Made by a program: the position numbers and the translations under genes. Under the pieces are notes generated by a model. That model saw nothing but the letters and a program-made list of their open reading frames with translations, was not told the origin of the DNA and did no database searches. DNA of 64,000 nt from Candidatus Staskawiczbacteria bacterium (lineage in GTDB: Bacteria > Patescibacteriota > Minisyncoccia > Minisyncoccales > Staskawiczbacteraceae). How positions within the stretch are numbered: position 1 is the stretch's first letter; every line of letters begins with the position of its first letter. The stretch is from contig CAILLM010000003.1 in assembly GCA_903835075.1 (NCBI GenBank), positions 1,002 through 65,001 on the forward strand, written 5' to 3'. Of this stretch, positions 5,182 to 60,808 are shown piece by piece.

Positions 5182-5187
5182 AAAAAA

Positions 5188-33900: not shown

Positions 33901-36900
33901 CCATCGCAATCCGAATAATAAAGGCAATATGCGCTATCACCACCACAAACACCGTTTATCCCACAACTAAACTGCCCATTACAACCATTATTAGCCCAAC
34001 AATCTTGCCCTGCATTGCCAGACGTGCAATAACCGTATGGGCTACATTGACCAGAAATACAGGTTTCATTAAGGTTACAACTGTCTCCGTCAGAAATAAG
34101 TGCTTGACAGAAACCTCCATTCCAGTATTTACCAGATCCGCAAATTACTGTTCCATTGTTACTGAATGATGATGAAAAACTCGGTGGACCATAGCTTACA
34201 CCGGTCATATCAATTGTTCCATAATTATATACAGAGCTTTGGTATAAACCACCATAAATGTAGTTATAATTTGCATCAACAGTTACTGTGCTATAAAAAT
34301 TTCCTGCATGGATTTCACCCATGCTAAGCTCTACTGGAGAATAGAAATATCCACCTGAAATCATTGCACCCGAGTTTAATACAACCGGAACATTAAATGT
34401 TCCTCCAGACACGTTTGTACCTTGGAAAGAAAGTGACCCGTTGCCATCAATTTGCCATGCGCCAGACCCAAAATTATATCCATAAGGAACCGTCACATAA
34501 GCGTTACCAAGGTGCACCGTTGAGCCATCAGGAGGAACTATATGGTTATCCCAATTTAATTGATCATCCCAATAAGTGCCGTTTCCCTGCCCAGTCCAAG
34601 TGAAAGAAGATGGCATACAGACACTATTTACGCAAGCTAAAAATCCTTCACACTCTGTGCTCGTGTTGCACGTTGCCCCCATTCCTCCGCAGGTATTATA
34701 AGGGGCGCCTGGGTCACGGTATGCAGAACAATTATTATTAGCACAATACATTCCGCTGTTATAGCCACCAGGACATGAAGCACCTACACCTCCACAAATA
34801 GTTTGACATTCACCACCCAAACCACCATCATAAGCATTTGTAGCACACTGAATACTTGTCGTACAACTTGCGCCATTATTTAAAAGTTGAGAACACTGGC
34901 TTCCGTCAAAATACTGACCATAATCACAAGAAGACACCGTACACTGATTTGTATTCCAAGACTTGCCACTTGGGCAAAGGTAGCCCCCACTATAATCTGT
35001 GACTGTTGCGCCAAGCATGTCTGGTGGACCATAACTTGTCCCGATTGCATCAATTGTTCCATAGTTATCTACGGTGCTGGTATAAGTTCCACCATAAATA
35101 TATGCACCAACTTCATTCAATACACTTACCGGGTACATACCATATTGGATTACGCCATAATTGTCTATTCCAATTCCGCCACCCGTGTTTGTCAGGGCTC
35201 CACTGATGTTTGCAATGGTGCCCATGTTGTTAATACCAAAACCAGCACCATTATTGTTAAAAGTCCCGCTGATATCGGTGATTATTCCGCCATTATTTTC
35301 TATGCCAGAAGCACCGTCGCTATTATTATCATTAACTACTCCACTAATATTGGTGATTGTTCCATAATTTAAAATCCCTGCACCAGAAGTACTAATTGTG
35401 AAAGTTCCGGTAATATCAGTTATAGTGCCATTATTAACAATTCCATACCCACTTGTATTATTGATTGTTACATTATCCAAAACAACTCCTCCGAAGTTGT
35501 CGTTTTTATTTGTATAACCATAAGGAATAACTGGACTATTTAGTGAATTTGAATCAATCATAATACTTGCACCCTCTGGTGGCAAGCCCAACGTCCCTCC
35601 TTCCGCCCAATTTTGGGAATCTGTCCAATTATCGCTGTTTCCGCCAACCCAGTGGAAAGTTGGAGCTGCTGCAGGGCATTGTTTTGCGTTCGGGTCCCAT
35701 GTCCCATTGTCAGGACAAATAATTGTCCCACTATTATTTACCGTAGCACCAGTTAAATCTGGCGGAGTCCCATCTGTATAGTCTATAGTTCCGTAGTTCG
35801 TTACAGTTCCTGCAAATGTACCACCTGTTATTGTGCCGCTATTTAGCACTAGAAAAGTAAAATTTCCACCGGTTATTGTACCACCATTTCCGCTATTTCC
35901 AACTGGTCCGTTAAATGTTCCACCAGTTATTGTACCACCATTACTGATATAATAACCACCGTTAAATGTTCCACCATTTATTGAAAAACTATTATTAAAA
36001 ATCATGATTGCCGACCCGCTATCCATGGTTACAGTACCCATGTTCATAGATCCACTAAAATTTATTACGGGATCAGCCATATTGCCAGTATCTGGAATAT
36101 AAATATCTGAACCATCTGGTGGCACAGCACCATCTTGCCAGTTAGCATCGGTGTTCCAGTCTCCGCCGTTATTCCCGCCAACCCAATAATAAATTGGGTC
36201 AACAATGTAATCAAAATCAACACTACCCGTAACCTTCAAATCAAATTTGTCAGTTGGTGTTTGTAGGTTTGTTAAAAAAACTTTATAGGTGTTGGCAGTT
36301 GTAATGCTATCAAAAGTAGCAACAATTGAGCCTTCTGTTGTATTACCATCTGCATCTGTATAAACCGGATAAACTTCTATTTTTGCAGGGCTATTTAGAT
36401 TTGTAGCCCTTGCATAAATAGTGTTATCATTTTTATTGTTTAGTGGGCTATCAAAAGTTACCCTAACAGATTGTCCGTTAGTTATTGTGGTGTAATTATT
36501 ATCTTGAGTTTTAACTGTGTCATAAATATCAGCTAAAATTGATTGGTCTGTATCAAGCTGAAATGCCTTAGAAATAAAAATGATATTAAAAATTTGTTCG
36601 GACAAATGGGGGACCGTCCATTCAACGTAATCTAAATAACCATCACTATTTGTGTCATAAGCGCTAAATACTACTTCTTGATTGCCTTGATTTTCCCATT
36701 TAATTTTAATTTTATCTTCTTGTCCTACCTTAAATATTTTTGGAATTTTTGTAGAAGCTAAAATATCCGTAAGCGGAGCTTGCGGATCTTCATTAGTGGC
36801 AGAAACTGTTACTTGTTGACCGGTGTTGGTAGTCTCTGAAACAATTTGTGGAGCAGGGGTATCATATTCAACAGCTATGTAGTCTGACAATGGCTCAGCT

Positions 36901-41146: not shown

Positions 41147-44100
41147 TTAATTAATAATAAATGAAGTAGACCCTGTGCATGTCCCTTTTGTTCCAGTAGG
41201 CACCGCAACCTGCCAATAAACATTTTGAGTAACAGTTGGAGTTGATTGTGTTGGCTTGTTTAAATTTGCCCCAACATCAGTTGCTGTAACAGACAAAGCT
41301 GTTCCCGCACCATAACTAAAACTACTCAAATTATATTGCTGATTACCAACTGGTATAGAGGATCTAACCGAACACCCCAAATTGTTACCAGCAACTTTGA
41401 ATCCTGTTGCAATGTTACCGGTGTTAGTAACTGTTACTGTATGGTTTCCAGTTGTATTATGATTTGGAGTAAGTGAACCATAACTTATGGTTGCCCCAAC
41501 ATCAATAGATTTTAATGTATCCATTTCAATCCCCGAAGAAGTTGTTCCTGTACCCCCGCCAATGTGATCTGATGGCGTAATTTTGCAAAGCCAATTTTCA
41601 GAAGAATAAGTCCCCGAATCTGTTGCATCGGCGTAATAATAAACCGGGAATGTGCAAGTATAAATTTGCGTGTTACCCGACCCTCCCGAGGCAACACACT
41701 GGCTGGTGAGGGTATAATGGTTTGCCCTATCATCACTTGCGCCAACACCAATTCCGCTTCTATATAACACTGCAGTAACTCCAGTTAAGTCGGCGTACCC
41801 GTTAGCGTCGTAGGCAGTTGCCGAGCATACAACATTTTTAGTTGTCCCCTCCATTAAAGTTATGTCAGTTGAAGACAAAGTTGTGGCATCATAAGTTAAA
41901 ACACTTCCCGATATATACGGCAAAGTATTAAATTGCCAACCCAAGTTATTACCACCATCGGTGCTGTTTTGTTGTTGAATTGGCTGCGCTGCTCCGTTTG
42001 ACGCATTATTATCATAAACAGTTGCATATTGAACATAGGCATGGCCGTGGTTATCAGAAACAACAGCAATGTCTAAGCGTGCTCTACCAGCTTTAGCACC
42101 GTCGGTTCCGGCTTGATCAGATTTTAACAAAATATTGTGCCCATTTGAACCTTCCAATTGAAACGTGCCGGAAATTGTTGTGGTTGTTGCTTGCGGAAAA
42201 ATAATTATTTGGCTTGGCGTAATGGCTGTAAAATTATAAAACGTTGTTGTGCCAGAAATTGTTGTGGTTGCACCAGAAAATACAACCGCACCAAGTTGTG
42301 GCGTAAAAGTTCCTGTATTTGCCCAATTTCCTGTGTTTGTAATTCCATAATTGCTTCCACTTTTAGCATCAAGCGTACCGGCTGTAATATTTACTCCGGC
42401 CACCGTAATATTTGTTGGCAACGTAAATGTTCCGCCATTGCCGTTTATTTTTAAAATTGCATTTGTGTAAGTCCAATTTTTAATATCTCTTGTACCAGAA
42501 GTAGCAGTATATTCCACCGTTGAACCAGCGCTTAGCGTTGGCGTTGAAACAGTTTCTCCGCCTTGCAGTTGAAGCTTTGCAGTTGAAACAAAAGTTGGCG
42601 AAGTTAAATTATTCCCAGCTAAATTAAGAACCCCAGTAGAACTTAAGGTTGTGCTTACTGCCGATTGATTTCCAGCCAAGGTTACTGTGTTTGAGTCAAT
42701 TACAACCGTATCATAAGAACCAGGATAACCCACCCCCTCTACATTTCCCGCTTTTCCCCAAGTAGCACCTAAGTTCCAATTTCCGTTTACAGCATCGTTG
42801 AAAGAAATTGGCGAAGTTGAACCACCATCAGTTATTGTCCAGCCATAAGTTCCTGTTAAAACTCCGCGTGCGGTTGCCGGAGCACCTGTATAATATTTTG
42901 CACCACCTCCGCTAAAGGTTATCCCTGATTTTACGACTTGCCCAGACCAGCCTACTAATATGTTGCTATAGTTGATAGAAGATAACCCAGAGCTTGTGAA
43001 CATACTAGCCATACCTCCGGCAGCAGTAACTCCAGTCACATTCCAAGTGGCAAGATTTTGATTAAATACAGTGGCGCCATTAAACATATTACTCATTGTT
43101 GTAACACTTCCCGTGTTCCAACCACTTATGTTTTGATTAAAAGCGGTACCCGTAAACATATAACTCATATCTGTTACATTCGCAGTGCTCCAACCGCTTA
43201 TATTTTGATTAAAAGCCCCGTCGTATCCAAACGCATAACGCATGTCCGTAACACTTGACATATTCCAACTTCCAATTGGTTGGTTAAATGGTGCGTTAAA
43301 AAACATCGTATTTATAGATTTAGCACTAATCGTATTCCAGTTCCCAATTGGCTGGTTGAATCCTGACGCTCTAAATGTACCAGCAAAACTCGTAACTTTT
43401 GAAACGTCCCAATTATTTATTGTATTGCTACCACCGTTATTAAAGGCGGTGGCGGTAAAAAACATAGACCCCATATTAATAAGACTAGTTGGAGTCCAAG
43501 CTCCAATGTTTTGGTTAAAAGCAGTGTCTGAATCAAACATGGACAGCATAGTTGTAACTTTGGAAACATTCCAACCTCCAATATTTTGGTTGAACACAGC
43601 ATCCGATTGAAACATATAACTCATATCCCCCACATTCCCTGTGCTCCAACTTCCGATGGGTTGGTTAAAAACAGTCGAAGTAAACATCCATTTCATATCA
43701 GTAACTTTTGATGTATCCCAATTATTTATCGTATTACTACCACCGTTATTAAAGGCACTGGCGTTGCGGAACATGCTATTCATGGTTGTTACAGCTTCTG
43801 TACTCCAACCACCAATGTTTTGGTTAAAGGCCGTACCAAAAAACATACTAGCCATACCCGTGACCTTTGCGGTGTTCCAACTTCCAATGGACTGATTAAA
43901 ATTAGTGTCATAAGCAAACATAGCGGTCATATCTGTAGCACTTATGGTGCTCCAATTTCCAATGGGTTGATTAAATGCAGTATCCTGATAAAACATATAG
44001 CCCATTGTCCCAACCTTTGAAACATCCCAGTTATTTATTGTATTGCTACCACCGTTATTAAAGGCATTAGCACCAAAAAACATATTTGCCGTGTCTGTAA

Positions 44101-46126
44101 CACTTCCAGTATTCCAACCTCCAATGTTCTCATTAAAAGCAGCGGCACTATAAAACATGCGGTTTAAACTTGTAACGCTTGCCATATTCCAACTGCCCAT
44201 AGAAGGAGCAGTTATAATTCCGCTGGCCCTGAAAGCGCTACCCATGTTTGTTATTCCTGTCGTGTCCAAAGCGTCTACTGCGGTAATTCTTAAATTAGTG
44301 GTTCCATAAAAATAACTACCAACATTTCCCAATCTCAATATTCCCCATTGCGAAATAGTTTTTATCTTTAAAACGTCTCCAGTATTATTGAATTGCCAAC
44401 CAGTAAGCGTGCCCGTGATGCTCAGCGTATAGGTTCCCGAAGTTGCGTAAGTATGAGTGACTGCCGCCTGGTTCCATGCGGTAATTGTGCTGGTACTGGT
44501 GTCTCCCCAATCTACTACAAAATTATAAGTGCCTCCATTATACAAAGGAAGTTTAATCTGGCTTGCAGTGCTAGAACCCGTTGAAGTTAAAGTTGTATCC
44601 CATGTTGAAATAAAAGGACTTGGGTCAACAATGTAATCAAAATCCACACTTGCATTAACAACTTTTAAGTCAAAAAGGTCTGTTGGTTTTTGCAAATTTT
44701 GAAGTAAAATTCTGTATTTCTTCGCCTCGCCGAAGCCCGAAGGCGAAGGCGGGTCCGACGTAATATTACTAAAATCGGGGTTCATTCCGTCATTGACTGG
44801 CACTAATTTGTTACCCTCAGTTTGATTTCCATCGGCGTCTGTATAAACGGGGTAGACATCTATTGAACCTTCCATACCTGAATCGGTTGGTCTGGCAAAA
44901 ACAGTTATATCATTTCCAGTACTTAGAATTTGGTCAAAAGTTACCCGCACATAATTATCTTGCGGGACAGTTGCATAAACACCATCTTGCGTGGCAACAG
45001 TGTCATAAATATCAGCTGTTATGTTTTTATCAGCATCTAACTGAAAAGCCTTTGAAATAAAAATAATATCAAAAACTTGCTCAGACAAATGGGGGACAGT
45101 CCATTCCAAATAATCTATCATTCCATTACCATCTAAATCTTTGGCAGTAAATGGAACTTCTTGCCCATTACTATTTTTCCATTTAATTTTTATTTTATTT
45201 TCATCTCCAACTTTGTAGATTTCGGGGATTGTTGTAAAAGCCAAAACATCTGTTAATGGAGTTGTTTCGTCTTTAGCTGAAATAGTAACTTGTTGGCCAG
45301 TGTCTGTGTTGGTTTTCTCAATCACGGGAGCTGGGGCAACATATTCCACGGCAATACAATTATCAGTTTCATCTCCTTGGCAAGGTTGTTTGTCAATTAG
45401 GGGTTGATCTTGAACATCAGGGCTGGGGCTCGCTGGGTCAGCAGACTCAGTGTCCGGTTGAATAACAGGATCAGCAGGTTGCGCGGGCAATTCAGCTGGC
45501 GTCTCGGCGAGCGTTGCTTCCGAGCCTGACGTTGCTTCCGGAGTTGGTGTTACCTCCGGCGTGGTCAAGACTTCTGCTGTGCCAGATACATCAACAAATT
45601 GCGAACTATTATCTGGCAAAATAGCTGAGACAGCTCCTTCCACGGCCTGTTGCTCATCAGCTAAAAATAAGTTCATGCCATAAGCCAAGCTACCCAAAAA
45701 ATTTTTCGCATAATCTTTTTTAGCTACTGGCTTAACTACTTTTAATACATTTAATTTTTGGTCTATGGTAATTTCTGCACCCTTATTTTTCTCTATATTT
45801 CTTATTTCTGCAGGTGTTATTTTCTTAATTTTTATGTCTGTAGCATTCTTAGGAATTTTCACTAAGTGTTTACCATTTTTTATTTCATTAGCATCAACCA
45901 AAGTAACCATTTTTATAGGCAACCCCGCAACTACTTGTGCAACAGGTATAGTTCGTGCGTTTTTAAATGTGAATGTTTCTTCTCGCGAATGACTCAACTC
46001 AAACCAAACACCCCAAGCCACAAACAGCAGCACTAGGGCAAATAAAAATCCCAAAATTATATTTTTATTTTTGGTAAAAAAATTCACTAAAAACTTGCAA
46101 AATTGGTTTACAACTTTATTTTGCAT
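41147..46126 (-). CDS. Giant surface protein (1659 aa) built from five modules
   Basis: Continuous ORF. Modules: N-terminal TM anchor, shared stalk module, about 17 DUF285/BspA-type 26-residue repeats, beta-helix-like region, C-terminal domain shared with 40153-41097. Repeats of the form MF..a.aFNQ.IG.W.ts.Vt.M. Confidence 0.85.
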   Translation of the reverse strand: MQNKVVNQFCKFLVNFFTKNKNIILGFLFALVLLFVAWGVWFELSHSREETFTFKNARTIPVAQVVAGLPIKMVTLVDANEIKNGKHLVKIPKNATDIKIKKITPAEIRNIEKNKGAEITIDQKLNVLKVVKPVAKKDYAKNFLGSLAYGMNLFLADEQQAVEGAVSAILPDNSSQFVDVSGTAEVLTTPEVTPTPEATSGSEATLAETPAELPAQPADPVIQPDTESADPASPSPDVQDQPLIDKQPCQGDETDNCIAVEYVAPAPVIEKTNTDTGQQVTISAKDETTPLTDVLAFTTIPEIYKVGDENKIKIKWKNSNGQEVPFTAKDLDGNGMIDYLEWTVPHLSEQVFDIIFISKAFQLDADKNITADIYDTVATQDGVYATVPQDNYVRVTFDQILSTGNDITVFARPTDSGMEGSIDVYPVYTDADGNQTEGNKLVPVNDGMNPDFSNITSDPPSPSGFGEAKKYRILLQNLQKPTDLFDLKVVNASVDFDYIVDPSPFISTWDTTLTSTGSSTASQIKLPLYNGGTYNFVVDWGDTSTSTITAWNQAAVTHTYATSGTYTLSITGTLTGWQFNNTGDVLKIKTISQWGILRLGNVGSYFYGTTNLRITAVDALDTTGITNMGSAFRASGIITAPSMGSWNMASVTSLNRMFYSAAAFNENIGGWNTGSVTDTANMFFGANAFNNGGSNTINNWDVSKVGTMGYMFYQDTAFNQPIGNWSTISATDMTAMFAYDTNFNQSIGSWNTAKVTGMASMFFGTAFNQNIGGWSTEAVTTMNSMFRNASAFNNGGSNTINNWDTSKVTDMKWMFTSTVFNQPIGSWSTGNVGDMSYMFQSDAVFNQNIGGWNVSKVTTMLSMFDSDTAFNQNIGAWTPTSLINMGSMFFTATAFNNGGSNTINNWDVSKVTSFAGTFRASGFNQPIGNWNTISAKSINTMFFNAPFNQPIGSWNMSSVTDMRYAFGYDGAFNQNISGWSTANVTDMSYMFTGTAFNQNISGWNTGSVTTMSNMFNGATVFNQNLATWNVTGVTAAGGMASMFTSSGLSSINYSNILVGWSGQVVKSGITFSGGGAKYYTGAPATARGVLTGTYGWTITDGGSTSPISFNDAVNGNWNLGATWGKAGNVEGVGYPGSYDTVVIDSNTVTLAGNQSAVSTTLSSTGVLNLAGNNLTSPTFVSTAKLQLQGGETVSTPTLSAGSTVEYTATSGTRDIKNWTYTNAILKINGNGGTFTLPTNITVAGVNITAGTLDAKSGSNYGITNTGNWANTGTFTPQLGAVVFSGATTTISGTTTFYNFTAITPSQIIIFPQATTTTISGTFQLEGSNGHNILLKSDQAGTDGAKAGRARLDIAVVSDNHGHAYVQYATVYDNNASNGAAQPIQQQNSTDGGNNLGWQFNTLPYISGSVLTYDATTLSSTDITLMEGTTKNVVCSATAYDANGYADLTGVTAVLYRSGIGVGASDDRANHYTLTSQCVASGGSGNTQIYTCTFPVYYYADATDSGTYSSENWLCKITPSDHIGGGTGTTSSGIEMDTLKSIDVGATISYGSLTPNHNTTGNHTVTVTNTGNIATGFKVAGNNLGCSVRSSIPVGNQQYNLSSFSYGAGTALSVTATDVGANLNKPTQSTPTVTQNVYWQVAVPTGTKGTCTGSTSFIIN
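44720..44757. repeat. GC hairpin element (family GCCTCGCCGAAGC..GCGAAGGCGGG) in-frame in the giant gene
   Basis: CTTCGCCTCGCCGAAGCCCGAAGGCGAAGGCGGGTCC, translated as PPSPSGFGEAKK; related copies at 57390, 56711 (inverted) and 55869. Confidence 0.8.
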
Positions 46127-47450: not shown

Positions 47451-47603
47451 AGCGAGGAAAATGGGTTTTGTGGCGCGTTTCAGGACACAAAGTGCCTGAC
47501 CGAGCGAGTTAGTTTTGCGTAGGGTCGCGAGGAATTAATACGAAGTATAATTCCCCGACCTAGCAAAAATCACGAGCGTCGCAACAAAATCATTTTCCGA
47601 GCG
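47451..47603. repeat. Composite GC-rich palindromic element, divergent copy; its right arm overlaps the 3' end of the ComEC-like CDS
   Basis: AGCGA-GGAAAATGGGTTTTGT ... ACAAAATCATTTTCC-GAGCG; contains TCAGGACAC-AAA-GTGCCTGA and GGAATTA..TAATTCC hairpins. Confidence 0.8.
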
Positions 47604-48534
47604 TTATATTATTACCGTCAGAAATAAAGGTAACGTCACCATTTATGTCTGTTCTTAACACCTTTATACCAAAATTTTGCAATCTTTGCAAAGTTTCGGG
47701 CGTTGGGTGCCCATAAGAATTTTTCCCAACCTCAATAACCGCAAATTTTGGTGTTACACTTGCTAAAAATAAATCACTAGTTGAATATTTACTTCCATGA
47801 TGGGCCACTTTCAAAACATTGGCCAAAATATCTTGCCCTGAGCCGTGCCAAATGATTTCGCCAACAATCTCTTTTTCAGCTTTTGTATCTATATCTCCAG
47901 TAAATAAAAAAGAGTTTTTTCCATAAATTATTTTTGAGACCACGCATGAATCGTTAGAGCTACTTTTCATTTCTTTGCCTTCCATGCTTTGCAACGGATA
48001 AATTGTATCAATTAGAACATTGCCGGCTTTTATTTCCTGCCTGCCGGCAGGCAGGCCTGCCCCCGATTGTGCGACTATAATTTTGGCTCCCATATTTTTT
48101 TGATACGCCAAAATTTTCATCCATGCGTAATATTCTGGGGCTGATTTTTTAATGCCACTCCACAAAATATAATCTGCTTTATATCTTTGCAAAGCATATA
48201 AAATCCCTTGCATATGATCGGACTCAGGGTGAGTTAAAATTACTAAATCAATTGTTTTATCCCAAACTGGCATATTTTCAGATAATTTTCCCAAAACTGT
48301 GGCATTTGGCCCACCATCTATTAAAATTTGGTGGCCCTCTGGGGTTTCAATAAACTCTGCATCTCCTTGCCCAACACTTAAAAACACAACTTTCAAATAA
48401 TGTGAGCCATATAGAGAAAAAACTTCCTGCCATGCAACAAAATTCAAAACCAACAAAAATCCAACAATAAATAAAACCGCACTCTTTTTCATTTTAATTA
48501 AATATACCCTTTTGTAACTGTATAACCGTCTCAA
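47590..48534 (-). CDS. ComEC/Rec2-type metallo-beta-lactamase domain protein (N-terminal TM, no competence channel domain)
   Basis: 314 aa; HPESDHMQG, KVAHHGSKYS, YGHP. Alternative start ATG at 48492; contains the LPAGRQ palindrome insert. Confidence 0.75.
   Translation of the reverse strand: MRRLYSYKRVYLIKMKKSAVLFIVGFLLVLNFVAWQEVFSLYGSHYLKVVFLSVGQGDAEFIETPEGHQILIDGGPNATVLGKLSENMPVWDKTIDLVILTHPESDHMQGILYALQRYKADYILWSGIKKSAPEYYAWMKILAYQKNMGAKIIVAQSGAGLPAGRQEIKAGNVLIDTIYPLQSMEGKEMKSSSNDSCVVSKIIYGKNSFLFTGDIDTKAEKEIVGEIIWHGSGQDILANVLKVAHHGSKYSTSDLFLASVTPKFAVIEVGKNSYGHPTPETLQRLQNFGIKVLRTDINGDVTFISDGNNITLGK
48036..48055. repeat. 20-bp perfect GC palindrome in-frame in a CDS
   Basis: CCTGCCTGCCGGCAGGCAGG, translated LPAGRQ. 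Confidence 0.9.
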
Positions 48535-48604: not shown

Positions 48605-49132
48605 TTAGACTTTCTCAATTAAAAATATTTTGACATACTTTTCTAAAGAATGTGCTTGAAGCAAAGTTTCTGTTTTTTCTGAAACATCATACGGAGTTAT
48701 CCAAACGCTCTGCTGGAATAATTTATATCCCAAATTATGCAAGATACTTCTAAGCAAATCTCTGTCATTTCTGCGGTTTCTGGGTATATCAAAAATCATC
48801 ATTATCCACTTTCCATCTTTTCTTTTCTCAGCTTCTCCTAGCTTAAAACTAGCCATTATCGCCTTTTCGATTCCATCTTTTGTTAAAATTATTGCTTTTT
48901 TATTTTCTAAATTTTTTACTTTTATGTAACCCTTTCTTTTAAGATAATAGATAAAATTTCCAAATTGCTTCTCACTTTTTTCTTTCCGATACTTTTTATA
49001 TATAGGATTTTTTGGGCCTGGCAAAAAATTGTTCATCGTTATTGGTTGAGCTGAATAACGAACAACCTCTCCCGCTAAATATATAAATTTATAAACATCC
49101 CAAAGAAATTTATCGGTAATTGGAATTTTCAT
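48605..49132 (-). CDS. PaaX-like / Cas2-fold winged-helix regulator, second paralog
   Basis: 175 aa; KDGKWIMMIFDIPRNRRNDRDLLRSILHNLGYKLFQQSVWITPY. Confidence 0.6.
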   Translation of the reverse strand: MKIPITDKFLWDVYKFIYLAGEVVRYSAQPITMNNFLPGPKNPIYKKYRKEKSEKQFGNFIYYLKRKGYIKVKNLENKKAIILTKDGIEKAIMASFKLGEAEKRKDGKWIMMIFDIPRNRRNDRDLLRSILHNLGYKLFQQSVWITPYDVSEKTETLLQAHSLEKYVKIFLIEKV

Positions 49133-49430: not shown

Positions 49431-49549
49431 AGCGAGGCAATAAATTTTTCAGCGAGGCAATAAATTTTTTGAAGCCCTGTGCACACGAAGTGGCTCAATA
49501 GCGAAAAAATTTGATTGCCGAGCGATTTTAAAAGTTTACTGCCGAGCGA
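49431..49549. repeat. Composite GC-rich palindromic element, nested copy (C-type arms)
   Basis: AGCGA-GGCAATAAATTTTTC-AGCGA-GGCAATAAATTTTTTGAAG ... CGAAAAAATTTGATTGCC-GAGCGA-...TTTACTGCC-GAGCGA. Confidence 0.9.
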
Positions 49550-49571
49550 ATATTATTTATATTAGACTATT

Positions 49572-51599: not shown

Positions 51600-52127
51600 C
51601 TATATAACTTTATATAAAATAAAGCTTGTTACTAATAAAAATATTACTGGCACCACAACTCTTTGATATGGAAAAAATACTTTTCCATTATTTTGTTTTT
51701 TTAAATACAAATTAAACCAATGCCCCAAATATAAAACTATAAATCCCATGACAGAACCTACAATTATTTTGTCTAAGCCCCAAATTTGATTTAATGGGTG
51801 CCCCACAATTCCGGCATAGTATAGTGGAATGTATGTTAGCAAAACATAAGCTAAGGTGATTACAATTCCATCATCAGTAAAGCTCCATTTTTTCTTTTTC
51901 ATGTAGTCTAAGGTCCAAGAAATAATGGCAATCATAAATGCTCCAATCCAAACTGAGGATACCACGTCGTCAATTCCAAACCAGCGTGAAAATCCAAGTC
52001 CAGCTCCAATTGCCACAACACAAACAGGGCAAACTTGCGCGCTTACAAAAGTTGCCCTGCCTACCGGCAGGCAGGCGAAAATAATTCCTAAAAATAATAA
52101 TCCTAAAAATAAATATTTATATTTCAT
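51600..52127 (-). CDS. Integral membrane protein with CPVC motif
   Basis: 175 aa, about 5 TM segments; QVCPVCVVAIGAG. Contains a palindrome insert; last gene of the copper/redox run. Confidence 0.55.
   Translation of the reverse strand: MKYKYLFLGLLFLGIIFACLPVGRATFVSAQVCPVCVVAIGAGLGFSRWFGIDDVVSSVWIGAFMIAIISWTLDYMKKKKWSFTDDGIVITLAYVLLTYIPLYYAGIVGHPLNQIWGLDKIIVGSVMGFIVLYLGHWFNLYLKKQNNGKVFFPYQRVVVPVIFLLVTSFILYKVI
52056..52075. repeat. 20-bp GC palindrome (1 mismatch) in-frame in a CDS
   Basis: CCTGCCTACCGGCAGGCAGG, translated CLPVGRA (read in a different frame from the other copies). Confidence 0.85.
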
Positions 52128-52138: not shown

Positions 52139-52250
52139 AGCGAGGCAGTGAATTCAAAGCGTACCCTGCAGGCCCGCCCTGGGCGGGCCGAAGCCTGAGT
52201 GAGTTGCGCGCTGGCGCAACGAACGCTAGCGGAGAATTTACTGCCGAGCG
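52139..52250. repeat. Composite GC-rich palindromic element (B-type core)
   Basis: Near-identical to 27398-27510 (AGCGA-GGCAGTGAATTC ... GAATTTACTGCC-GAGCG); ends 6 nt from the upstream stop. Confidence 0.9.
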
Positions 52251-52255
52251 GGAAT

Positions 52256-52669
52256 CTATTTTATTCCAGCAACTGTCTTTAAAAAGTTGGGCACGTCCAC
52301 TTCTCCTATATAACATTTTCCCGCCTGCCCTGAGCTTGCCGAAGGGTCATATAAAAATGGCACCCCAACTGAATCCCCTTTTATGTTGCATATTTTTGCA
52401 ACCTGCGCTAATGTGCCCTGATTATTTTTATTATACCAAACTTCCATTCTAGTAATTTTTACCTTCTCTTCAATTTTATTTTCAGTTATAAATTTTTCAA
52501 CATCAGCACAGTGCGGACACCCCTGCCCATAAAACAAAACTATACCTGCAGGAAGCGGCGTAGCATTTATTGTTGAGCCGGGGCTAGAAAAAAATCCTGT
52601 TTGAAACCCCCAAAACATAAATCCTGCAAAAACTACAATAATAATAGTTAATATGATTGTTTTGTCCAT
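52256..52669 (-). CDS. Membrane-anchored thioredoxin/glutaredoxin-like protein
   Basis: 137 aa; N-terminal TM, GQGCPHC active site; GC-rich insert encoding SASSGQAG. Confidence 0.7.
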   Translation of the reverse strand: MDKTIILTIIIVVFAGFMFWGFQTGFFSSPGSTINATPLPAGIVLFYGQGCPHCADVEKFITENKIEEKVKITRMEVWYNKNNQGTLAQVAKICNIKGDSVGVPFLYDPSASSGQAGKCYIGEVDVPNFLKTVAGIK

Positions 52670-55016: not shown

Positions 55017-55238
55017 TTATAAAGTTTTATACCCCAGATCTTTAATTTTATTTTCTATTTCCGGCAAACTTGTTTCTGTTGGGTCAAACTCCAAAAAAAC
55101 TTTTTCTGAGCCAAAATCTACATTAGCAGAAGCAACCCCCTTTTCTTCTTCTAAGCCAAATTTAATTATTTTGGCACAAGACTGGCATTTCATGCCTAAT
55201 ATTTTTAATGTTGTTTTTTGCATATTATTTTGGGACAT
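55017..55238 (-). CDS. copZ: Copper chaperone, HMA domain
   Basis: 73 aa; GMKCQSCAKII. Confidence 0.8.
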   Translation of the reverse strand: MSQNNMQKTTLKILGMKCQSCAKIIKFGLEEEKGVASANVDFGSEKVFLEFDPTETSLPEIENKIKDLGYKTL

Positions 55239-55425
55239 TAAGTTCTTTTAAAATTTTATCTAAATCCAACCCATAGGCCTTACAAATTTCTCCAACTTGC
55301 AAGTCATCCATTTCAAACTCGGCCATTGGGCAAGACAAGCACGGCACCCCATTTTTTGCTAAAATTTTATCGGCACCTTTTTGTTTAATTATTTTTGCTA
55401 AAGTAGTAGTTTTTGTTATTTTCAT
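55225..55425 (-). CDS. DUF1858-type redox-disulfide small protein
   Basis: 66 aa; GVPCLSCPMA...TLGEICKAYGLD-like pattern. Confidence 0.6.
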   Translation of the reverse strand: MKITKTTTLAKIIKQKGADKILAKNGVPCLSCPMAEFEMDDLQVGEICKAYGLDLDKILKELNVPK

Positions 55426-55431: not shown

Positions 55432-55561
55432 AGCGAGGCAGTGAATTCGTAGCGTGCCCTGCAGGCAATTTTGCTTGGTCCGCCGATAGGCGGAAAATTG
55501 CCGAAGCCTGAGTGAGCCCGCGCTGGCGGGCGAACGCTAGCGAAGAATTCTCTGCCAAGCG
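55432..55561. repeat. Composite GC-rich palindromic element (B-type scaffold with substituted hairpins)
   Basis: AGCGA-GGCAGTGAATTC ... GAATTCTCTGCC-AAGCG; hairpins GGCAATTTT..TCCGCC-GATA-GGCGGA..AAAATTGCC and CCCGC-GCTG-GCGGG. Confidence 0.9.
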
Positions 55562-55563: not shown

Positions 55564-56952
55564 TTAATTTACAACTTCTATTGTTCCCCTAATCATTCCC
55601 ATGGTGCAAGAGAATCCAAAGGTTCCTACATTTTGTGGAGTAAATTCTTTTACAGAAACCTGCCCCGGAGTTAAATTGATTTCATCATTAAATAAATCCC
55701 TAGAAATAATAGCACCATTACAACCCAAAGAGTTTCCGGCAGTAATTTCCCATTTTACAGGAATTCCAGCTTTTACTTTGAAATAGTTTGGGCTATCTGC
55801 AGATCCTGTGGCTGTCATGGCAATAACCTGAACGCCATTAACAACTGGCGCCAAACCACCTTGCTTTTCCTCGCCGGAGCCTTGCGCGGAGGCGGGTGTT
55901 TGATTTTGATTTAAGTTAACTCCTAAAACCGCAACTTGATTAGACATATTAAATAGCGCGAAAAATATCACTAAAAATCCTGCTACCTTAGAAAATCTTT
56001 CAGCCAAGTGAGGTTTTGAAGAAAGCTTTACGCTTGAAAGTCCAATAAAAAATAATACTGGAATTGTTCCTAGCGCAAAAGCTCCCATTATTAATGCTCC
56101 GCTAATCATATTTCCAGACAATAATGCTAAACTTTGAGCAGTTATTGTAAACCCGCAAGGCAAGAAAAATGTTAACGCTCCCATAACAAACGGCATATAT
56201 TTACCGTGAAAATTATTTTCATTGGCAATTTTTCTTGTGAAACTTTTTGGTGCTGAAAGTTGAAATCTTCTGAAAGCTTTTACTCCAAGCATTTGCAACC
56301 CCAAAGCAATCATTAATAAAGAAATAGCAATAACCAAATATCCTGTAATTTGTGGTGAAATTTGCAATCTGCTACCAATCAAGCCCAAAACTCCACCCAA
56401 AATAATATAAGAGACTAATCTTCCCGCATTAAACATAATATGTGGCTGAAGTTTTTTTGATGTTTTATCATTTTCAGCATAAATGCTATTCCACTGTTTA
56501 GACATTGATAAAACAATTCCTCCAACCAAAGCAGCACAAGAAGACATTCCGGCTAAAAGTCCAAATCCAAAAAATGTAAAAATAGAAGATGTTGAGCTTA
56601 AACTTAAAAAATTAGCAATTCCTAATTTATCTAAAATTAAAAAAGCAATAATTATAAAAATTGCGATATTAAAAGCCACCAACGTTGGGTTGGCGCCCTT
56701 AGTGTCACCACCCGCCTTCGCGTTTTCGTGCTTCGGCGAGGCAAAGTCAGAAAAAGTATAATTCTCTTCTTTAAATAAATGACTTAATTTCTCTGGATTT
56801 GGTCTATCGCCATCAAATTCAATGGTCACTTCACCATTGCCAGTTGAAGCGTCAACTGCTTTTACATTTGGTAAATCCAGTAACTTTTTTTCTATTAAAA
56901 TTTCACACGAGGCGCAATGCATTCCCTTAACTTTATATGTGTGTTCATTCAT
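55564..56952 (-). CDS. HMA domain, TauE/DsbD-like membrane domain and C-terminal cupredoxin-like domain protein
   Basis: 462 aa; MHCASCEILIE, about 7 TM segments, C-terminal GCNGAIISRDL...FSCTMGMIRGTIEV. Confidence 0.7.
   Translation of the reverse strand: MNEHTYKVKGMHCASCEILIEKKLLDLPNVKAVDASTGNGEVTIEFDGDRPNPEKLSHLFKEENYTFSDFASPKHENAKAGGDTKGANPTLVAFNIAIFIIIAFLILDKLGIANFLSLSSTSSIFTFFGFGLLAGMSSCAALVGGIVLSMSKQWNSIYAENDKTSKKLQPHIMFNAGRLVSYIILGGVLGLIGSRLQISPQITGYLVIAISLLMIALGLQMLGVKAFRRFQLSAPKSFTRKIANENNFHGKYMPFVMGALTFFLPCGFTITAQSLALLSGNMISGALIMGAFALGTIPVLFFIGLSSVKLSSKPHLAERFSKVAGFLVIFFALFNMSNQVAVLGVNLNQNQTPASAQGSGEEKQGGLAPVVNGVQVIAMTATGSADSPNYFKVKAGIPVKWEITAGNSLGCNGAIISRDLFNDEINLTPGQVSVKEFTPQNVGTFGFSCTMGMIRGTIEVVN
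55869..55896. repeat. GC hairpin element (variant CCTCGCCGGAGC..GCGGAGGCGGG) in-frame in a CDS
   Basis: Translated within PASAQGSGEEKQGG. Confidence 0.7.
56711..56742. repeat. GC hairpin element, inverted orientation, in-frame in a CDS
   Basis: CCCGCCTTCGCG..CTTCGGCGAGGC is the reverse complement of GCCTCGCCGAAGC..GCGAAGGCGGG; translated within SPKHENAKAGG. Confidence 0.75.
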
Positions 56953-56958: not shown

Positions 56959-57100
56959 AGCAAGGCAATTTTTTTTAGCGAGGGAGTTAATTTTCAGCGT
57001 ATTTCAGTACACGAAGTGACTGACGAAGCCATTTAGACGCGAAGCGTATCAATGGCGTTAGCAGAAAATTAATTGCCGAACGAAAAAATTTTATTACCGA
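56959..57100. repeat. Composite GC-rich palindromic element, nested copy (A-type core)
   Basis: AGCAA-GGCAATTTTTTTT-AGCGA-GGGAGTTAATTTTC ... GAAAATTAATTGCC-GAACGA...; near-identical to 12827-12973. Confidence 0.9.
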
Positions 57101-57106: not shown

Positions 57107-57382
57107 TTACTTGTTAAATAATTTAGTTACTTTTAAAATTTCGTCAGTCATTTCTTTTTTTCTTTTCTCGTTTTTAGATGCCATAGCATTTTTAAAACAA
57201 GAATTTAAATGACTTTCCATTAGCATTTCGTGAGCAGAACGCAAAAGACCTATAACAGCCAAATTTTGCTGCATAATGTCCATGCAATATTCCCCTTTCT
57301 CGGTCATTTCTATTATTTTAGAAATAGAACCGTGTGCTTTTTTAAAACTAATTAAAGCTTTTTTCCTATTTTCACTTATCAT
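57107..57382 (-). CDS. csoR: CsoR/RcnR-family metal-sensing repressor
   Basis: 91 aa; YCMDIMQQ ... H....C pattern; first gene of the copper run. Confidence 0.8.
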   Translation of the reverse strand: MISENRKKALISFKKAHGSISKIIEMTEKGEYCMDIMQQNLAVIGLLRSAHEMLMESHLNSCFKNAMASKNEKRKKEMTDEILKVTKLFNK

Positions 57383-57430: not shown

Positions 57431-57457
57431 ACATATTTATTAATAATTCTATTTATT

Positions 57458-57480: not shown

Positions 57481-57517
57481 ATTATATCAGGTTTAAGGAC
57501 CGTGTCAATACCCTAGC

Positions 57518-58726
57518 CTATTTTATAATTCCGCCACCCAACACCTGGTTGCCTTTATAGAAAACTGCTGACTGGCCTGAAGTAATTGCGCGGTCTGATT
57601 TTTTAAAAACTAACTTACCGTCTTTATATAAAGTTGCTTTTTGCAAAGGTGCCCTATAACGCGTGCGAGCATCTACCAGCACTGGAAAAGCTTCTGGTTT
57701 ATTTATCCAATTTATGTTTACAATTTTTGCTTCTTTCACTGCCAAATCTTTTTCTGTACCAACATAAATAATATTTTTCTTTATGTCTTTTTTAACTACA
57801 AAATAAGGTCCGTGCCCATCTTTAATGTCTAAACCATGCCTTTGGCCAATTGTGTAGTAATAAACGCCATCGTGCTTACCTATTTTTCTGCCGTCTAAAG
57901 AAATTATTTCTCCTATTTTTGGCTTTATATACATTTTTAGGAAAGCCTTCATATCAAACTGCCCAATAAAGCAAACCCCTTGGCTGTCTTTTTTCTCAGC
58001 ATTTTCTAATTTAAATTTTTTAGCTAATTTTCTAACTTCCGGCTTTGTAAGCCCACCAATTGGAAATAAGATTTTGTTTAACTGATTTTTCTTAATTGCA
58101 TACAAAAAATATGTTTGATCTTTATTTTGGTCAACAGCCTTTAGCAAGCGAGGCAAAGCAATGGAGCGAGGCAATGAACTTTTTCGAGAAGAAGGTGCCC
58201 CGTAGAGAGGCTCTCCTCGCAGAAAAAGTTTATTGCCGAGCGAAGTTTGCTGGCGGGCGAACGCTAGCGAAGAACTCAGCGCCGAGCGATTTTTGTCGAG
58301 CGTAGTCTGCGCATAGTGGCCAGTTGCCACAAAATCAAAACCTTCTTTCATGGCCCTATCAAAAAAATAACCAAATTTTATAATTTTATTGCACATTACG
58401 TCGGGGTTTGGCGTAATTCCCTTTTTATATGAATCGATCATATATTTGCCCACTTCTGCCTCATATTCTTTAGAATAATCCCAAGTTAAAAAAGGGATTT
58501 GCAATCTAGCACAAGCTCGCATAGCATCCTGCCTGTCTGTTTTCCAAATGCACTCTTTACCTAAAATTTCTGGAGCCCATTGCTTCATATAAATTCCAAC
58601 AACATCAACCTGCCTGCCGGCAGGCAGGGACCAGCCCTTTTTTAGTAGTGCAGCCGAAACTGAGCTGTCTACACCACCAGACATCGCCACGGCAATTCTT
58701 ATTTTTTGTTTACTGCTCTTATGCAT
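57518..58726 (-). CDS. mnmA: tRNA 2-thiouridine(34) synthase MnmA carrying two repeat-derived inserts
   Basis: 402 aa; PP-loop AMSGGVDSS, ATGHYA, KDQTYFLY. Extra ~45 aa lie between the last two motifs. Confidence 0.9.
   Translation of the reverse strand: MHKSSKQKIRIAVAMSGGVDSSVSAALLKKGWSLPAGRQVDVVGIYMKQWAPEILGKECIWKTDRQDAMRACARLQIPFLTWDYSKEYEAEVGKYMIDSYKKGITPNPDVMCNKIIKFGYFFDRAMKEGFDFVATGHYAQTTLDKNRSALSSSLAFARQQTSLGNKLFLRGEPLYGAPSSRKSSLPRSIALPRLLKAVDQNKDQTYFLYAIKKNQLNKILFPIGGLTKPEVRKLAKKFKLENAEKKDSQGVCFIGQFDMKAFLKMYIKPKIGEIISLDGRKIGKHDGVYYYTIGQRHGLDIKDGHGPYFVVKKDIKKNIIYVGTEKDLAVKEAKIVNINWINKPEAFPVLVDARTRYRAPLQKATLYKDGKLVFKKSDRAITSGQSAVFYKGNQVLGGGIIK
58144..58302. repeat. Composite GC-rich palindromic element inserted in-frame in mnmA
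   Basis: AGCAAGCGA-GGCAAAGC..-AGCGA-GGCAATGAACTTTTTC ... GAAAAAGTTTATTGCC-GAGCGA-..GCTGGCGGGCGAACGCTAGCGAAGAACTCAGCGCC-GAGCGA. Confidence 0.85.
58609..58628. repeat. 20-bp perfect GC palindrome in-frame in mnmA
   Basis: CCTGCCTGCCGGCAGGCAGG, translated LPAGRQ. Confidence 0.9.
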
Positions 58727-59428: not shown

Positions 59429-59523
59429 TGAGGCAATAAATTTTTTGAAGCGAGGCAGTGAATTCGAAGCGTACCCTGCAGGCCCGCCCTGGGCGGGCCG
59501 AAGCCTGAGTGAGCCCGCGCTGG
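59429..59523. repeat. Composite GC-rich palindromic element, right half missing
   Basis: ..GAGGCAATAAATTTTTTGA-AGCGA-GGCAGTGAATTCGAAGCG...GAGTGAGCCCGCGCTGGA, ending 2 nt from the iscS stop codon. Confidence 0.85.
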
Positions 59524-59524: not shown

Positions 59525-60808
59525 TTAAACCCTTACATTTACTGGCGAAATTCTTCTTAAATCTGCTACAATTTTTGGTAAAACTTTCAAAACATAATCT
59601 AAATCTTTTTTTGTAGTACTTCTGCCCAAAGTGAAACGCAAATTACCGTTGGCATATTCATATGGCCTTGAAAGGGCTAAAATGACGTGTGAGGGCTCTA
59701 AACTTTGCGAGTCACATGCAGAGCCAGTTGAACAATAAATTCCATATTTATCAAGCCACAAAAGCATTGCCTCTCCTTCAATATCTAAAATAGAAATATT
59801 TATATTATTTGGTAATCGTTTTTGTGCGTGTCCGTTTAGAACAACCTTAGAAACTTTTTTGGAAACTTCTTTTATAAAATAATCTCGCAACTTGGCTTCT
59901 TTTGCAGATTCTTTTCCCGTTGCCTGAGAAATTTCTAAAGCCTTGGCCAAACCAATAATTCCCGAAATATTTTCTGTGCCACTGCGCTTGCCATTTTCTT
60001 GACCGCCCCCAAAAACTATTGGGTCAATTTTGGTACCAGCTTTAACATATAAGACTCCTGTGCCCTTAGGCCCATAAATTTTACTCCCATTTAAAGTTAA
60101 TAGGTCAACTCCTAATTTTTGAACATCTAAATCTAAATAGCCAGCTGCCTGGCAAGCGTCTGTATGAAAATAAATTGGGGTGCTTATATTTCTTTTGAAT
60201 CTATTTGCTCTTATTTCTTTAATAATTTTTCCTATTTCTTCTATTGGCTGAATGGTTCCAATTTCATTATTTGCATACATAATTGAAATCAAAACTGTTT
60301 CATCTGTTATTACTTTTTTAAAGTCTTCTAAAAGTAAAATTCCATCTTTATCAACTTTTGAAGAAGTCACCTTAAAACCCTCTTTTTCTAATTGCTCACA
60401 TGGGTACAAAACCGCATGATGTTCTATATTAGAAGTAATTATATGAGCCGATAAGGCCGAGCTAAATAAATTTTTGGAGGAGGGGTAATCGCCTTGAGGA
60501 CATTCCCCCGACGAGCAAAAATTTGATTTGGCGAGGCCGAGCGAACGCGCGCAGGCTCTCGCCACGCCTAAAATAGCTAAATTATCACTTTCTGTCCCAG
60601 AACCTGTAAAAATTATTTCTTCTGGTTTACAATTTAAAATTTGAGCTATTGATTTTCTAGCTTTTAAAATTGCTGTTTTTGATTCACGGCCTGCTGTGTG
60701 CAAAGATCCTGCATTACCATAAATTTTATTATAATAAGGCTCCATTGCTTTTAACACACGAGAATCTGTTGGAGTTGTAGATGCATTATCTAGGTAAATT
60801 TTATTCAT
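59525..60808 (-). CDS. iscS: Cysteine desulfurase carrying a repeat-derived insert
   Basis: 427 aa; YLDNASTTP, SKIYGPKGTG, STGSACDS. Extra segment RACARSLGLAKSNFCSSGECPQGDYPSSKNLFSSALS precedes HIITSNIEHHAV. Confidence 0.9.
   Translation of the reverse strand: MNKIYLDNASTTPTDSRVLKAMEPYYNKIYGNAGSLHTAGRESKTAILKARKSIAQILNCKPEEIIFTGSGTESDNLAILGVARACARSLGLAKSNFCSSGECPQGDYPSSKNLFSSALSAHIITSNIEHHAVLYPCEQLEKEGFKVTSSKVDKDGILLLEDFKKVITDETVLISIMYANNEIGTIQPIEEIGKIIKEIRANRFKRNISTPIYFHTDACQAAGYLDLDVQKLGVDLLTLNGSKIYGPKGTGVLYVKAGTKIDPIVFGGGQENGKRSGTENISGIIGLAKALEISQATGKESAKEAKLRDYFIKEVSKKVSKVVLNGHAQKRLPNNINISILDIEGEAMLLWLDKYGIYCSTGSACDSQSLEPSHVILALSRPYEYANGNLRFTLGRSTTKKDLDYVLKVLPKIVADLRRISPVNVRV
60445..60566. 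repeat. C-type palindromic element derivative inserted in-frame in iscS
   Basis: Arms AAATAAATTTTTGGAGG / GCAAAAATTTGATTT match the arms of 49431-49549; flanked by GCCGAGC and GGCGAGGCCGAGCGA. Confidence 0.75.

Follow-up and report, generated by a model that had tools for sequence, protein, structure and literature searches.

Palindromic repeats with covarying stems around an almost invariant junction, probably mobile, in a Staskawiczbacteria-type genome

Introduction

How can the stem of a hairpin be replaced by another sequence and go on pairing, and what keeps it paired? The question is raised by a GC-rich palindromic element at positions 55432-55561 on the + strand of a contig from a Candidatus Staskawiczbacteria bacterium, within a window that comprises the whole 64-kb stretch of DNA analysed here. 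An initial annotation of this stretch had recognised a group of copies, called B-type, that share one scaffold while the hairpins within it differ, and had named selection on a single-strand fold and modular recombination between copies as processes that would leave such a pattern. Both are supported, each at its own scale: the fold between genomes, recombination within the window.

In this family, stems covary around a constant junction and constant loops; copies are present at a site in one genome and absent from it in another, lie nested in each other, are truncated, or are inserted in frame into genes; and the + strand gives the better fold. [quoted passage not shown] The outer stem of 11-13 bp, the terminal motifs, the mobility and the strand asymmetry described below lie beyond the initial description.

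Results

Layout and fold of the element

The window has a G+C content of about 35%, and all its long open reading frames (ORFs) lie on the - strand. The focal copy occupies the spacer between the stop of an HMA-DsbD gene (55564..56952, -) and the start of a DUF1858-like gene (55225..55425, -). Read on the + strand and with the hairpins in parentheses, it begins AGCGAGG-CAGTGAATTC-GT-AGCGT-GCCCTGCA-(GGCAATTTT GCTTGGT CCGCC GATA GGCGG AAAATTGCC), where hairpin 1 has the form first reported for it, and continues with GAAGCCTGAGTGAG-(CCCGC GCTG GCGGG)-CGA-ACGCT-AGCGAA-GAATTCTCTGCC-AAGCG. AGCGTA had been taken as common to all B-type copies; the focal copy has AGCGTG. Its parts are as follows.

55432..55561, + strand: complete B-type palindromic element with long hairpin 1 and CCCGC hairpin 2
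55432..55438, + strand: 5' terminal motif AGCGAGG, pairing with CCAAGCG at 55555-55561
55437..55448, + strand: 5' arm GGCAGTGAATTC of the outer stem P1, with its partner at 55545-55556
55451..55455, + strand: AGCGT, proposed 5' arm of P2, with its partner ACGCT at 55534-55538
55464..55502, + strand: hairpin 1 in its long form, GGCAATTTT / bulge GCTTGGT / CCGCC-GATA-GGCGG / AAAATTGCC
55502..55516, + strand: single-stranded spacer CGAAGCCTGAGTGAG, invariant and probably where crossovers between subfamilies take place
55516..55531, + strand: hairpin 2, G-CCCGC-GCTG-GCGGG-C
55534..55538, + strand: ACGCT, 3' arm of P2
55545..55556, + strand: 3' arm GAATTCTCTGCC of the outer stem P1, with one T.T mismatch against the 5' arm
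55555..55561, + strand: 3' terminal motif, CCAAGCG in the focal copy and CCGAGCG(A) in the consensus

In the full element, terminal motifs AGCGAGG...CCGAGCGA enclose an outer stem of 11-13 bp (GGCAGTGAATTC/GAATTCNCTGCC), in which a one-base bulge is conserved (13 copies). The motifs pair in the order G-C, C-G, a purine-purine 2x2 loop (tandem G.A in the consensus), G-C and G-C, and the ends are paired in the minimum free energy structures. The inner stem of the focal hairpin 1 (CCGCC/GGCGG) is identical to the stem of the short-form hairpin 1. The bulge of hairpin 1 (GCNNGG) is not complementary to the loop of hairpin 2 (GCTG), which ruled out a pseudoknot between them. Folded in silico, the focal copy is far more stable than its shuffles on both strands: -63.8 kcal/mol (z = -4.2) for the + strand as RNA, -57.6 kcal/mol (z = -4.1) for the - strand as RNA, and -35.7 kcal/mol (z = -4.3) for the + strand as DNA. 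It matches the covariance model of the family with 144.7 bits.

The stems vary while their pairing is kept

Scanning genome contigs with the bare 15-mer CGAAGCCTGAGTGAG was unspecific: 113 of the 116 loci were chance matches, and BLAST against the window left three true relatives. Two of these, L022 and L069, are copies on the 738-kb contig JBAZUH010000001.1 (Ca. Staskawiczbacteria), and the third, L086, comes from a different CPR genome. Another 21 loci were obtained when metagenome contigs were scanned with a gapped pattern; no copy was found in viral contigs. The alignment counted below holds 24 copies, from the window, two related genomes and 21 metagenome contigs. A single B copy (L125, 9150-9263) was detected through the covariance model alone, and its spacer is CGAAGCTGAGCGAG; in the scan-derived copies, the invariance of the spacer is partly ascertainment, as the spacer is in the search patterns.

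In the model-based alignment of the 24 copies, 98.2% of stem cells are paired, compared with 86.1% in shuffles and 31-47% in slid controls. Changes on both sides occur in 23 of the 38 pairs (109 cells), and none of 500 shuffles reaches any of the five measures. At the between-genome scale, these figures support the proposed selection on a single-strand fold. Both-side changes are found in 11 of the 13 pairs of helix 1 (P1), which is 96.8% paired, in 5/8 and 4/6 pairs of helices 3 and 4 (hairpin 1), and in 3 of 6 pairs of helix 5 (hairpin 2), which is 100% paired. Helix 2 (AGCGT/ACGCT) has no pair with both-side changes and three of five that never vary; covariation is neutral on this proposed pairing. 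Junction and loop bases are almost invariant, the hairpin-2 loop being GCTG in 22 of the 24 copies. RNAalifold, run on an independent plain MAFFT alignment, returned the same helices with 14 compensated pairs; it also predicts an alternative pairing, CTGCAGGC/GCCTGAG, that involves invariant columns only.

How varied are the stems? Hairpin 2 has at least six distinct fully paired stems, among them TTGCGC/GCGCAA, CCCGC/GCGGG, CTCGC/GCGAG, TCCCGC/GCGGGA and CGCCC/GGGCG, together with the G.T intermediates TCCGC/GCGGG, TTGTGC/GCGCAA and TTGCGC/GCGTAA. The inner stem of hairpin 1 comes in seven variants (TCCCGC, TTCGCC, TCCGCC, TTCCGC, CCCCGC, TTTGC and TTCGTCC); in the L125 copy, two pairs of the A/T part of this hairpin are flipped (GGCAAAATT/AATTTTGCC), and the short form has a further stem in another genome, GGCCCCGC-TAA-GCGGGGCC. 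The outer stem shows 19 haplotypes, nearly all complementary, in the 20 copies that have both outer arms. That compensatory substitution has happened repeatedly is shown by the variety of stems and the wobble intermediates seen between genomes. There is some subfamily structure among the variants, but in the wider alignment these are not merely clonal subfamilies that lack compensatory change.

Copies in the window and probable recombination between them

Within the window, the scaffold of the B type is real and far from chance: the 15-mer CGAAGCCTGAGTGAG has exactly four exact occurrences, all on the + strand (27448, 52189, 55502 and 59499), with 0.02 expected, and the terminal motif AGCGAGGCAGTGAATT, allowing up to three mismatches, has 11 matches with 0.53 expected. 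The 64 kb hold four B-type loci and about seven other family loci; the elements measure 113-135 nt, and the family as a whole is one of small, GC-rich repeats of about 115-135 nt. For comparison, syntenic loci were fetched via MnmA homologues, namely L138 (from the Staskawiczbacteria contig) and L140 (Ga0494704_000063); the MnmA of the window is 81% identical to that of the Staskawiczbacteria genome, and its best named matches come from Ca. Staskawiczbacteria, which places the host in this group of CPR/Parcubacteria. Besides the focal copy, the members are:

27398..27510, + strand: B-type copy, short hairpin 1 and TTGCGC hairpin 2 (110.4 bits)
52139..52251, + strand: B-type copy, short hairpin 1 and TTGCGC hairpin 2, flanked by ORFs 51600..52127 and 52256..52669
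59449..59523, + strand: right-truncated B-type copy, short hairpin 1 and the 5' arm of CCCGC hairpin 2, between nifU and iscS
58249..58289, + strand: B-type right-half fragment GCTGGCGGG CGAACGCTAGCG AAGAACTCAGCGCCGAGCGA, within the mnmA ORF and not in the L138 orthologue
58165..58243, + strand: other family member, AGCGAGGCAATGAAC...TTATTGCCGAGCGA, in frame in mnmA; also in L138, not in L140
58147-58164: left-end fragment of 18 nt within mnmA
5035..5182, + strand: A-type element with two nested outer layers, a weak match to the B model (E = 0.0035)
12827..12973, + strand: A-type nested element
56959..57085, + strand: A-type nested element with the compensated hairpin TCAGTACAC/GTGACTGA, between the csoR-like and HMA-DsbD genes
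47451..47605, + strand: composite family member with hairpin TCAGGACAC-AAA-GTGCCTGA and further modules
49431..49550, + strand: two-layer nested family member with the short core CACACGAAGTGG

The copy at 27398..27510 sits between rpsG (27512..27976) and a fusA-like ORF (25277..27352), and its end is 1 nt from the rpsG stop codon. The initial annotation had TTGCGC-GCTG-GCGCAA as hairpin 2 at 27398 and 52139 and CCCGC-GCTG-GCGGG in the focal copy, as we find; it also ascribed the latter hairpin to two remnants, which keep one arm each and which it placed at 59429 and 58144, where the correct positions are 59449 (59449-59523) and 58249 (58249-58289, from GCTGGCGGG). Hairpin 1 does read GGCCCGCC-C(A/T)G-GGCGGGCC at 27398, 52139 and 59449. 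The third form of hairpin 1 that had been listed among the B-type forms (5032, 12827, 56959, 47451) is present, but belongs to a different subfamily, the A type; at 56959 it is TCAGTACAC-GAA-GTGACTGA, with a compensated change that puts T-A where 5032 and 12827 have G-C. The A-type core at 5035..5182 has AGCGTA...hairpin...CGAAGCC in common with the B type. Some copies are nested as concentric AGCGAGG...CCGAGCGA layers, and others are truncated, decayed or fragments. A decayed remnant at 60455-60560, in the iscS-like ORF 59525..60808, has its left and right termini directly abutted (GGCGAGG-CCGAGCGA) next to an AT-stemmed hairpin. The translation of this remnant reads ...SLGLAKSNFCSSGECPQGDYPSSKNLFSSALSA..., and it could represent either a footprint or an element that has collapsed.

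The truncated copy at 59449 resembles a chimera. Its left part, up to the spacer, differs from that of 52139 by a single base (G in place of A directly after GAATTC) and is followed by hairpin 2 of the copy at 55432. The copy at 59449 is cut off after CCCGCGCTGG, and a remnant of an outer layer lies just before it at 59429-59447. In L022, the long hairpin 1 is joined with a TTGCGC hairpin 2. All four combinations of short or long hairpin 1 with TTGCGC or CCCGC hairpin 2 exist, with two four-gamete violations, and the association between the hairpins is one of partial subfamily structure, TTCGCC occurring mostly with TTGCGC, and TCCCGC with CCCGC or CTCGC. Given the chimera-like copy, the combination in L022 and the four-gamete violations, the stem swap within the window is most simply recombination or gene conversion at the invariant spacer, in line with the modular recombination first suggested.

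The fold favours the strand opposite to the mRNA

On which strand does the fold matter? In the window, AGCGAGG occurs 12 times on the + strand and never on the - strand, and CCGAGCG 12 times and once, respectively. The flanking genes are antisense to the element + strand in 22 of 23 informative copies; the exception is L129, where all genes of the contig lie on the strand of the copy. The transition mismatches in the element stems, read on the + strand, are G.T in 11 cases and A.C in 3, whereas the other GC-rich hairpins of the window, terminator-like stem-loops included, have a G.T:A.C ratio of 3:15 (Fisher p = 0.0009 against the elements). In 22 of 23 copies it is the + strand that folds more stably, with a mean advantage of 4.6 kcal/mol. 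Unpaired parts of this strand are purine-rich (a typical copy has G 41 / C 32 and A 34 / T 24), and the conserved ends form tandem G.A on it but pyrimidine mismatches (C.U/U.C) on the other strand. These asymmetries point to a selected fold on the non-mRNA strand, as single-stranded DNA or, less likely, antisense RNA. The loops are mainly C-GAA-G triloops, and hairpins of the d(GCGAAGC) type are exceptionally stable in DNA and unremarkable in RNA. Because the folded strand is not the mRNA strand and its triloops are very stable in DNA, it is more likely DNA than RNA.

Replication and transcription are inseparable by orientation, since elements and genes switch orientation jointly from 288-345 kb to 640-648 kb on the 738-kb JBAZUH contig, and the genes of the L129 contig are all co-stranded. 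Rfam, searched with both strands at gathering thresholds and at E <= 10, has no family for the elements; it reported only a tRNA and two chance CRISPR-repeat fragments. The elements were also considered as intrinsic terminators, and this was rejected: a terminator scan does not report the elements themselves, finding only two small internal stem-loops inside element regions (- strand, 58211-58197 and 47557-47541), while classical terminator-like sites lie elsewhere in the window at 61308, 50984, 49249 and 46200.

Empty and filled sites

The same gene junctions are filled in one genome and empty in another. At the focal site (HMA-DsbD to DUF1858), L140 is empty (TAA-TTTTTTACGAAT-ATG, 12 nt), the window has its B-type element and L138 a nested A-type element. 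Between iscS and nifU, the window has a truncated B copy, and both L140 (2 nt) and L138 (7 nt) are empty. The junction of the 137-aa and 175-aa ORFs is empty in L140 (4 nt), holds the B copy 52139 in the window and is an ORF overlap in L138; the junction from csoR to HMA is empty in L140 (25 nt), filled by an A-type element (56959) in the window and by a third core type in L138. Over 21 syntenic kb, L140 has no AGCGAGG/GGCGAGG 5' motif on either strand and a single match of the CCGAGCG/CTGAGCG 3' type; on the + strand of the 64-kb window, the same motif types number 16 (5') and 13 (3'). Elements are placed 0-5 nt past the upstream stop codon and 6-20 nt ahead of the next start, in spacers that are otherwise tiny.

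The flanking AGCG(A) direct repeats were considered as target-site duplications and ruled out: AGCG is absent from the empty sites, so the repeats are part of the element. Inner layers possibly arose by nested insertion into AGCG-containing loops. That the outer stem was taken from the target sequence is likewise ruled out, as four window copies at different loci have the same outer stem. The window holds no long element with AGCGAGG/CCGAGCGA termini.

Copies inside genes

The mnmA ORF of the window (57518..58726, 402 aa) reads through the region 58147-58289. In an alignment of orthologues, the corresponding loop of MnmA, HYAQ-TKNGK-LLKAVD, is short and lacks an insert in four proteins (P0004, P0005, P0014 and P0017); P0002, from L138, has one element, and the window has that element and two further pieces. 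Complete B copies lie at the same mnmA site in L120, L135 and L125, and one lies in a MiaB-like ORF of L129. Between genomes, the copies at the shared site are 0.73-0.86 identical, compared with 0.73-0.82 for the flanking coding DNA, and their stems are still paired. In 22 of 23 copies, at least one frame of the gene-sense strand is open, where composition alone would predict 59%; the + sense is open in only 2 of 23, where 43% would be predicted, the copies not being independent in either count.

The same loop, between GHYA and KDQ[ST]YF (window 58100-58320), is an insertion hot spot across Parcubacteria. It has 15 residues in its base state; inserts of 1-68 residues are present in over half of 120 homologues (P0001-P0120) and are of several unrelated repeat types, such as SLG...LPR or one that is AT-rich and encodes REIRNxKSEIxN...KLQTT. 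ORFs also contain a second family of GC-rich palindromes, CCTGCCTGCCGGCAGGCAGG and its variants, much shorter than the first (58609-58628, 48036-48055, 52059-52076 and 61130-61145), with nine overlapping matches at the four loci where 0.57 are expected; in mnmA it adds 'SLPAGRQ', which is in none of 14 aligned orthologues, and in an Rrf2-like ORF 'LPAGRHG'.

Other features of the window

Upstream of the CsoR-like repressor gene 57107..57382, the - strand has a perfect sigma-70-type promoter (57508-57481, TTGACA-16-TATAAT), followed by the palindrome ATAGACCTATACC..TAGGTGTAGGT (region 57440-57510). Both are conserved in L138 and L140, which makes this probably the CsoR operator of the copper operon. 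An additional small GC palindrome at about 57390-57430 is present in the window only, compared with L138 and L140. The Cas2-like central domain of PaaX (PF20803) is matched by two paralogous - strand ORFs of about 175 aa (24592..25131, E = 2e-16, and 48605..49132, E = 6e-20); the second of them is not at the syntenic position in L138/L140 and has the nested element at 49431 as its neighbour. The window contains just one + strand ORF (29656..30399, 247 aa), which has no Pfam match and adjoins the single tRNA gene, tRNA-Pro GGG (-, 29445-29516); the pair could mark an integration site. Two giant - strand ORFs, 30906..37697 (2263 aa) and 41147..46126 (1659 aa), have 70% identical segments in common (36451-36680 and 44934-45163) and internally hold degenerate repeats that recur about every 72-75 nt (43061-44201). 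At 29089-29128, 63429-63468 and 4993-5032, a short repeat, ...TACGTAGCGTAGCGATATATT..., stands directly before gene starts; it is also in the ATPase-137aa spacer of L138 (about 15600) and may be another small repeat or a regulatory motif.

Discussion

If the family is one of mobile repeats recognised by their fold, how might it work? The + strand, antisense to the genes, would fold into a rod that ends in a three-way junction. From the outside, this rod would consist of AGCGAGG/CCGAGCGA (two G-C pairs and tandem G.A), a stem of 11-13 bp, AGCGT/ACGCT, and two hairpins flanking the spacer CGAAGCCTGAGTGAG. The single-strand fold with its invariant junction may be the recognition target of a putative trans-acting mobilising enzyme, in which case the copy lineages that keep their pairing would be those that multiply. 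Stem diversity could then build up along two routes: stepwise compensatory substitution through G.T intermediates, and recombination or gene conversion between copies at the shared scaffold, which would best fit the swap within the window.

Known repeats resemble the family in some respects and differ in others. RPEs are found between genes and, with unusual frequency, in frame inside conserved housekeeping genes, to which they add a peptide (PMC10969869). Like them, the elements described here are palindromes of some 100-150 bp, repeated in a small and AT-rich genome, with proliferation followed by decay, and they insert in frame and leave the ORF intact, in this case in mnmA, iscS and a MiaB-like gene. 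The likeness is one of behaviour, and membership of the RPE sequence family is not claimed: the host belongs to a different phylum, so that no sequence relationship is expected. This family has an almost invariant three-way-junction core with freely covarying stems, purine-rich terminal motifs, concentric nested layers and near-constant orientation; to our knowledge, RPEs have not been described with any of these. Correia/NEMIS, ERIC and pneumococcal BOX elements are short, non-coding and multi-copy, have inverted ends and lie in co-transcribed operon spacers, and MITE traits include a modular make-up (BOX), insertions inside the element (ERIC) and strain-to-strain polymorphism of insertion (PMC10969869). 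Our elements are likewise below 300 bp, multi-copy, modular, without coding capacity of their own and polymorphic in insertion between related genomes; they also have terminal inverted repeats, in the outer stem of 11-13 bp just inside the terminal motifs, but these vary between genomes.

A likeness to REP/REPIN elements (RAYT, HUH) and IS200/IS605-derived elements lies in single-stranded DNA hairpins on one strand, variable paired stems, orientation bias and the lack of a target duplication. REPs are 20-40 bp long with a GTAG or CGTC tag (PMC3733652). The elements here differ in being 113-135 nt long, in that their only GTAG-like position varies (GTAG, GAAG, GCAG, GGAG) and in that their two ends pair with each other. 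In yeast mitochondria, GC clusters are GC-rich mobile palindromes of a very AT-rich genome that insert between and within genes and into each other; they differ from this family in being organellar, about 30-50 bp long and without a conserved three-way junction. Integron attC sites, too, are imperfect palindromes between co-oriented genes, are recombined as the folded non-mRNA single strand, and combine conserved ends and extra-helical bases with a freely varying stem. Unlike attC, the elements lack the R''/R' core sites (RYYYAAC/GTTRRRY) and have AGCGAGG/CCGAGCGA ends, their flanks are syntenic housekeeping genes, and copies lie inside ORFs. Palindromic or MITE elements in CPR/Patescibacteria are, as far as the searchable literature goes, without a description.

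Several points weigh against fold-recognised mobile repeats. Classical MITEs have conserved terminal inverted repeats that match the transposase of an insertion sequence (IS), and a target-site duplication. In this family, conservation is lowest in the inverted stems, and no duplication is visible at the four empty/filled comparisons, where a divergence of about 20-25% could mask one of 2-3 bp. A scan of 10 ORFs of the window revealed no transposase domain, and an autonomous partner is not known. Provided that genes run in the direction of replication, the strand preferred by the fold appears to serve as template for the leading strand, whereas the known single-strand transposons (IS200/IS605, REP/RAYT) use the other strand. 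The pairing kept at the shared mnmA site in three diverged genomes, whose B copies differ at many positions of the stems, could reflect constraint on resident copies or repeated insertion at a hot spot, and constraint on residents is not predicted by a purely selfish model. As for the counts, they come from 24 copies that are related to each other and from an alignment fitted to the model, and the search pattern included the spacer.

Could the host benefit from the elements instead? As proposed for REP, ERIC and Correia, they might be cis-acting structures in operon mRNAs (stabilisers, processing sites or translation insulators) that fold on the gene-sense (-) strand. Their position implies co-transcription, with spacers filled inside operons (rpsG-fusA, iscS-nifU and the cop genes), their orientation relative to genes is near-constant, the - strand also folds well, as the energy given above shows, and the mnmA site retains its pairing across diverged genomes. 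The wobble asymmetry, however, favours the opposite strand, while the window's other GC-rich hairpins show the bias of the mRNA strand; the terminal tandem G.A would become C.U/U.C in the mRNA; close relatives are element-free at the same junctions, with spacers of 2-12 nt; and many copies are truncated, decayed or inside ORFs. On balance we find a host-beneficial mRNA structure unlikely. A transcript of the + strand, that is, a small structured antisense RNA or a ribozyme with the three-way junction as its active core, would account for the specific fold and purine-rich unpaired regions of this strand, and for the invariant junction with its covarying helices. Its layout even resembles, superficially, a type III hammerhead (CUGAGUGAG - stem - CGAA), a reading that was rejected: the CUGA..GA box is one base longer than CUGANGA, hammerheads have far shorter junction strands, and no ribozyme model, with those for hammerhead, twister, pistol and hatchet included, is among the Rfam matches at E <= 10. 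With no consistent promoter or terminator on the + strand, triloops (GAA, AAA, CWG, TAA) that are atypical of selected RNA hairpins, and truncated copies and copies inside ORFs that speak against the status of a gene, we regard this RNA as very improbable.

Only marginally less improbable, in our estimate, is that no single strand folds at all and that the elements are palindromes of double-stranded DNA, either sites for dimeric proteins or terminal inverted repeats, whose half-sites change together or whose clonal subfamilies recombine. Terminal inverted repeats of transposons must match without any folding, recombination is evident, and there are partial subfamilies (TTCGCC with TTGCGC, TCCCGC with C(C/T)CGC). 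Double-strand symmetry, however, predicts no strand bias, and the G.T:A.C ratio is 11:3 in the elements against 3:15 in the background; the conserved, non-complementary purines of AGCGAGG/CCGAGCGA and the conserved bulge of the outer stem are meaningful on one strand only; and a sequence-specific protein would need to co-evolve with 6-19 fully paired stem sequences per helix.

A bolder idea goes beyond mobile repeats of a familiar kind. The invariant purine-rich junction, with its freely covarying helices and its fold on the non-mRNA strand, would then be the recognition or catalytic module of a mobility mechanism undescribed in bacteria, for example one in which a CPR enzyme handles a single-stranded DNA or cDNA intermediate, or the family would be a structured element domesticated by the host. 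We hold this to be a long shot, about on a par with the mRNA structures discussed above; if a new mobility mechanism were true, 'protein-coding palindromes' would be a general and active force reshaping CPR proteins.

Finally, we would place the non-autonomous mobile repeats that we favour in the context of small genomes. In-frame 'protein-coding palindromes' have so far been treated as a peculiarity of Rickettsia; an unrelated CPR family with the same behaviour suggests that they recur in small, AT-rich, tightly packed genomes. The family accounts for part of the many lineage-specific insertions in CPR proteins, and such repeats can break assemblies, shift gene calls and inflate the apparent novelty of proteins in CPR metagenomes. 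Beyond this, the family offers a clean natural case of helices that covary around an invariant junction, with a measurable preference for one strand.

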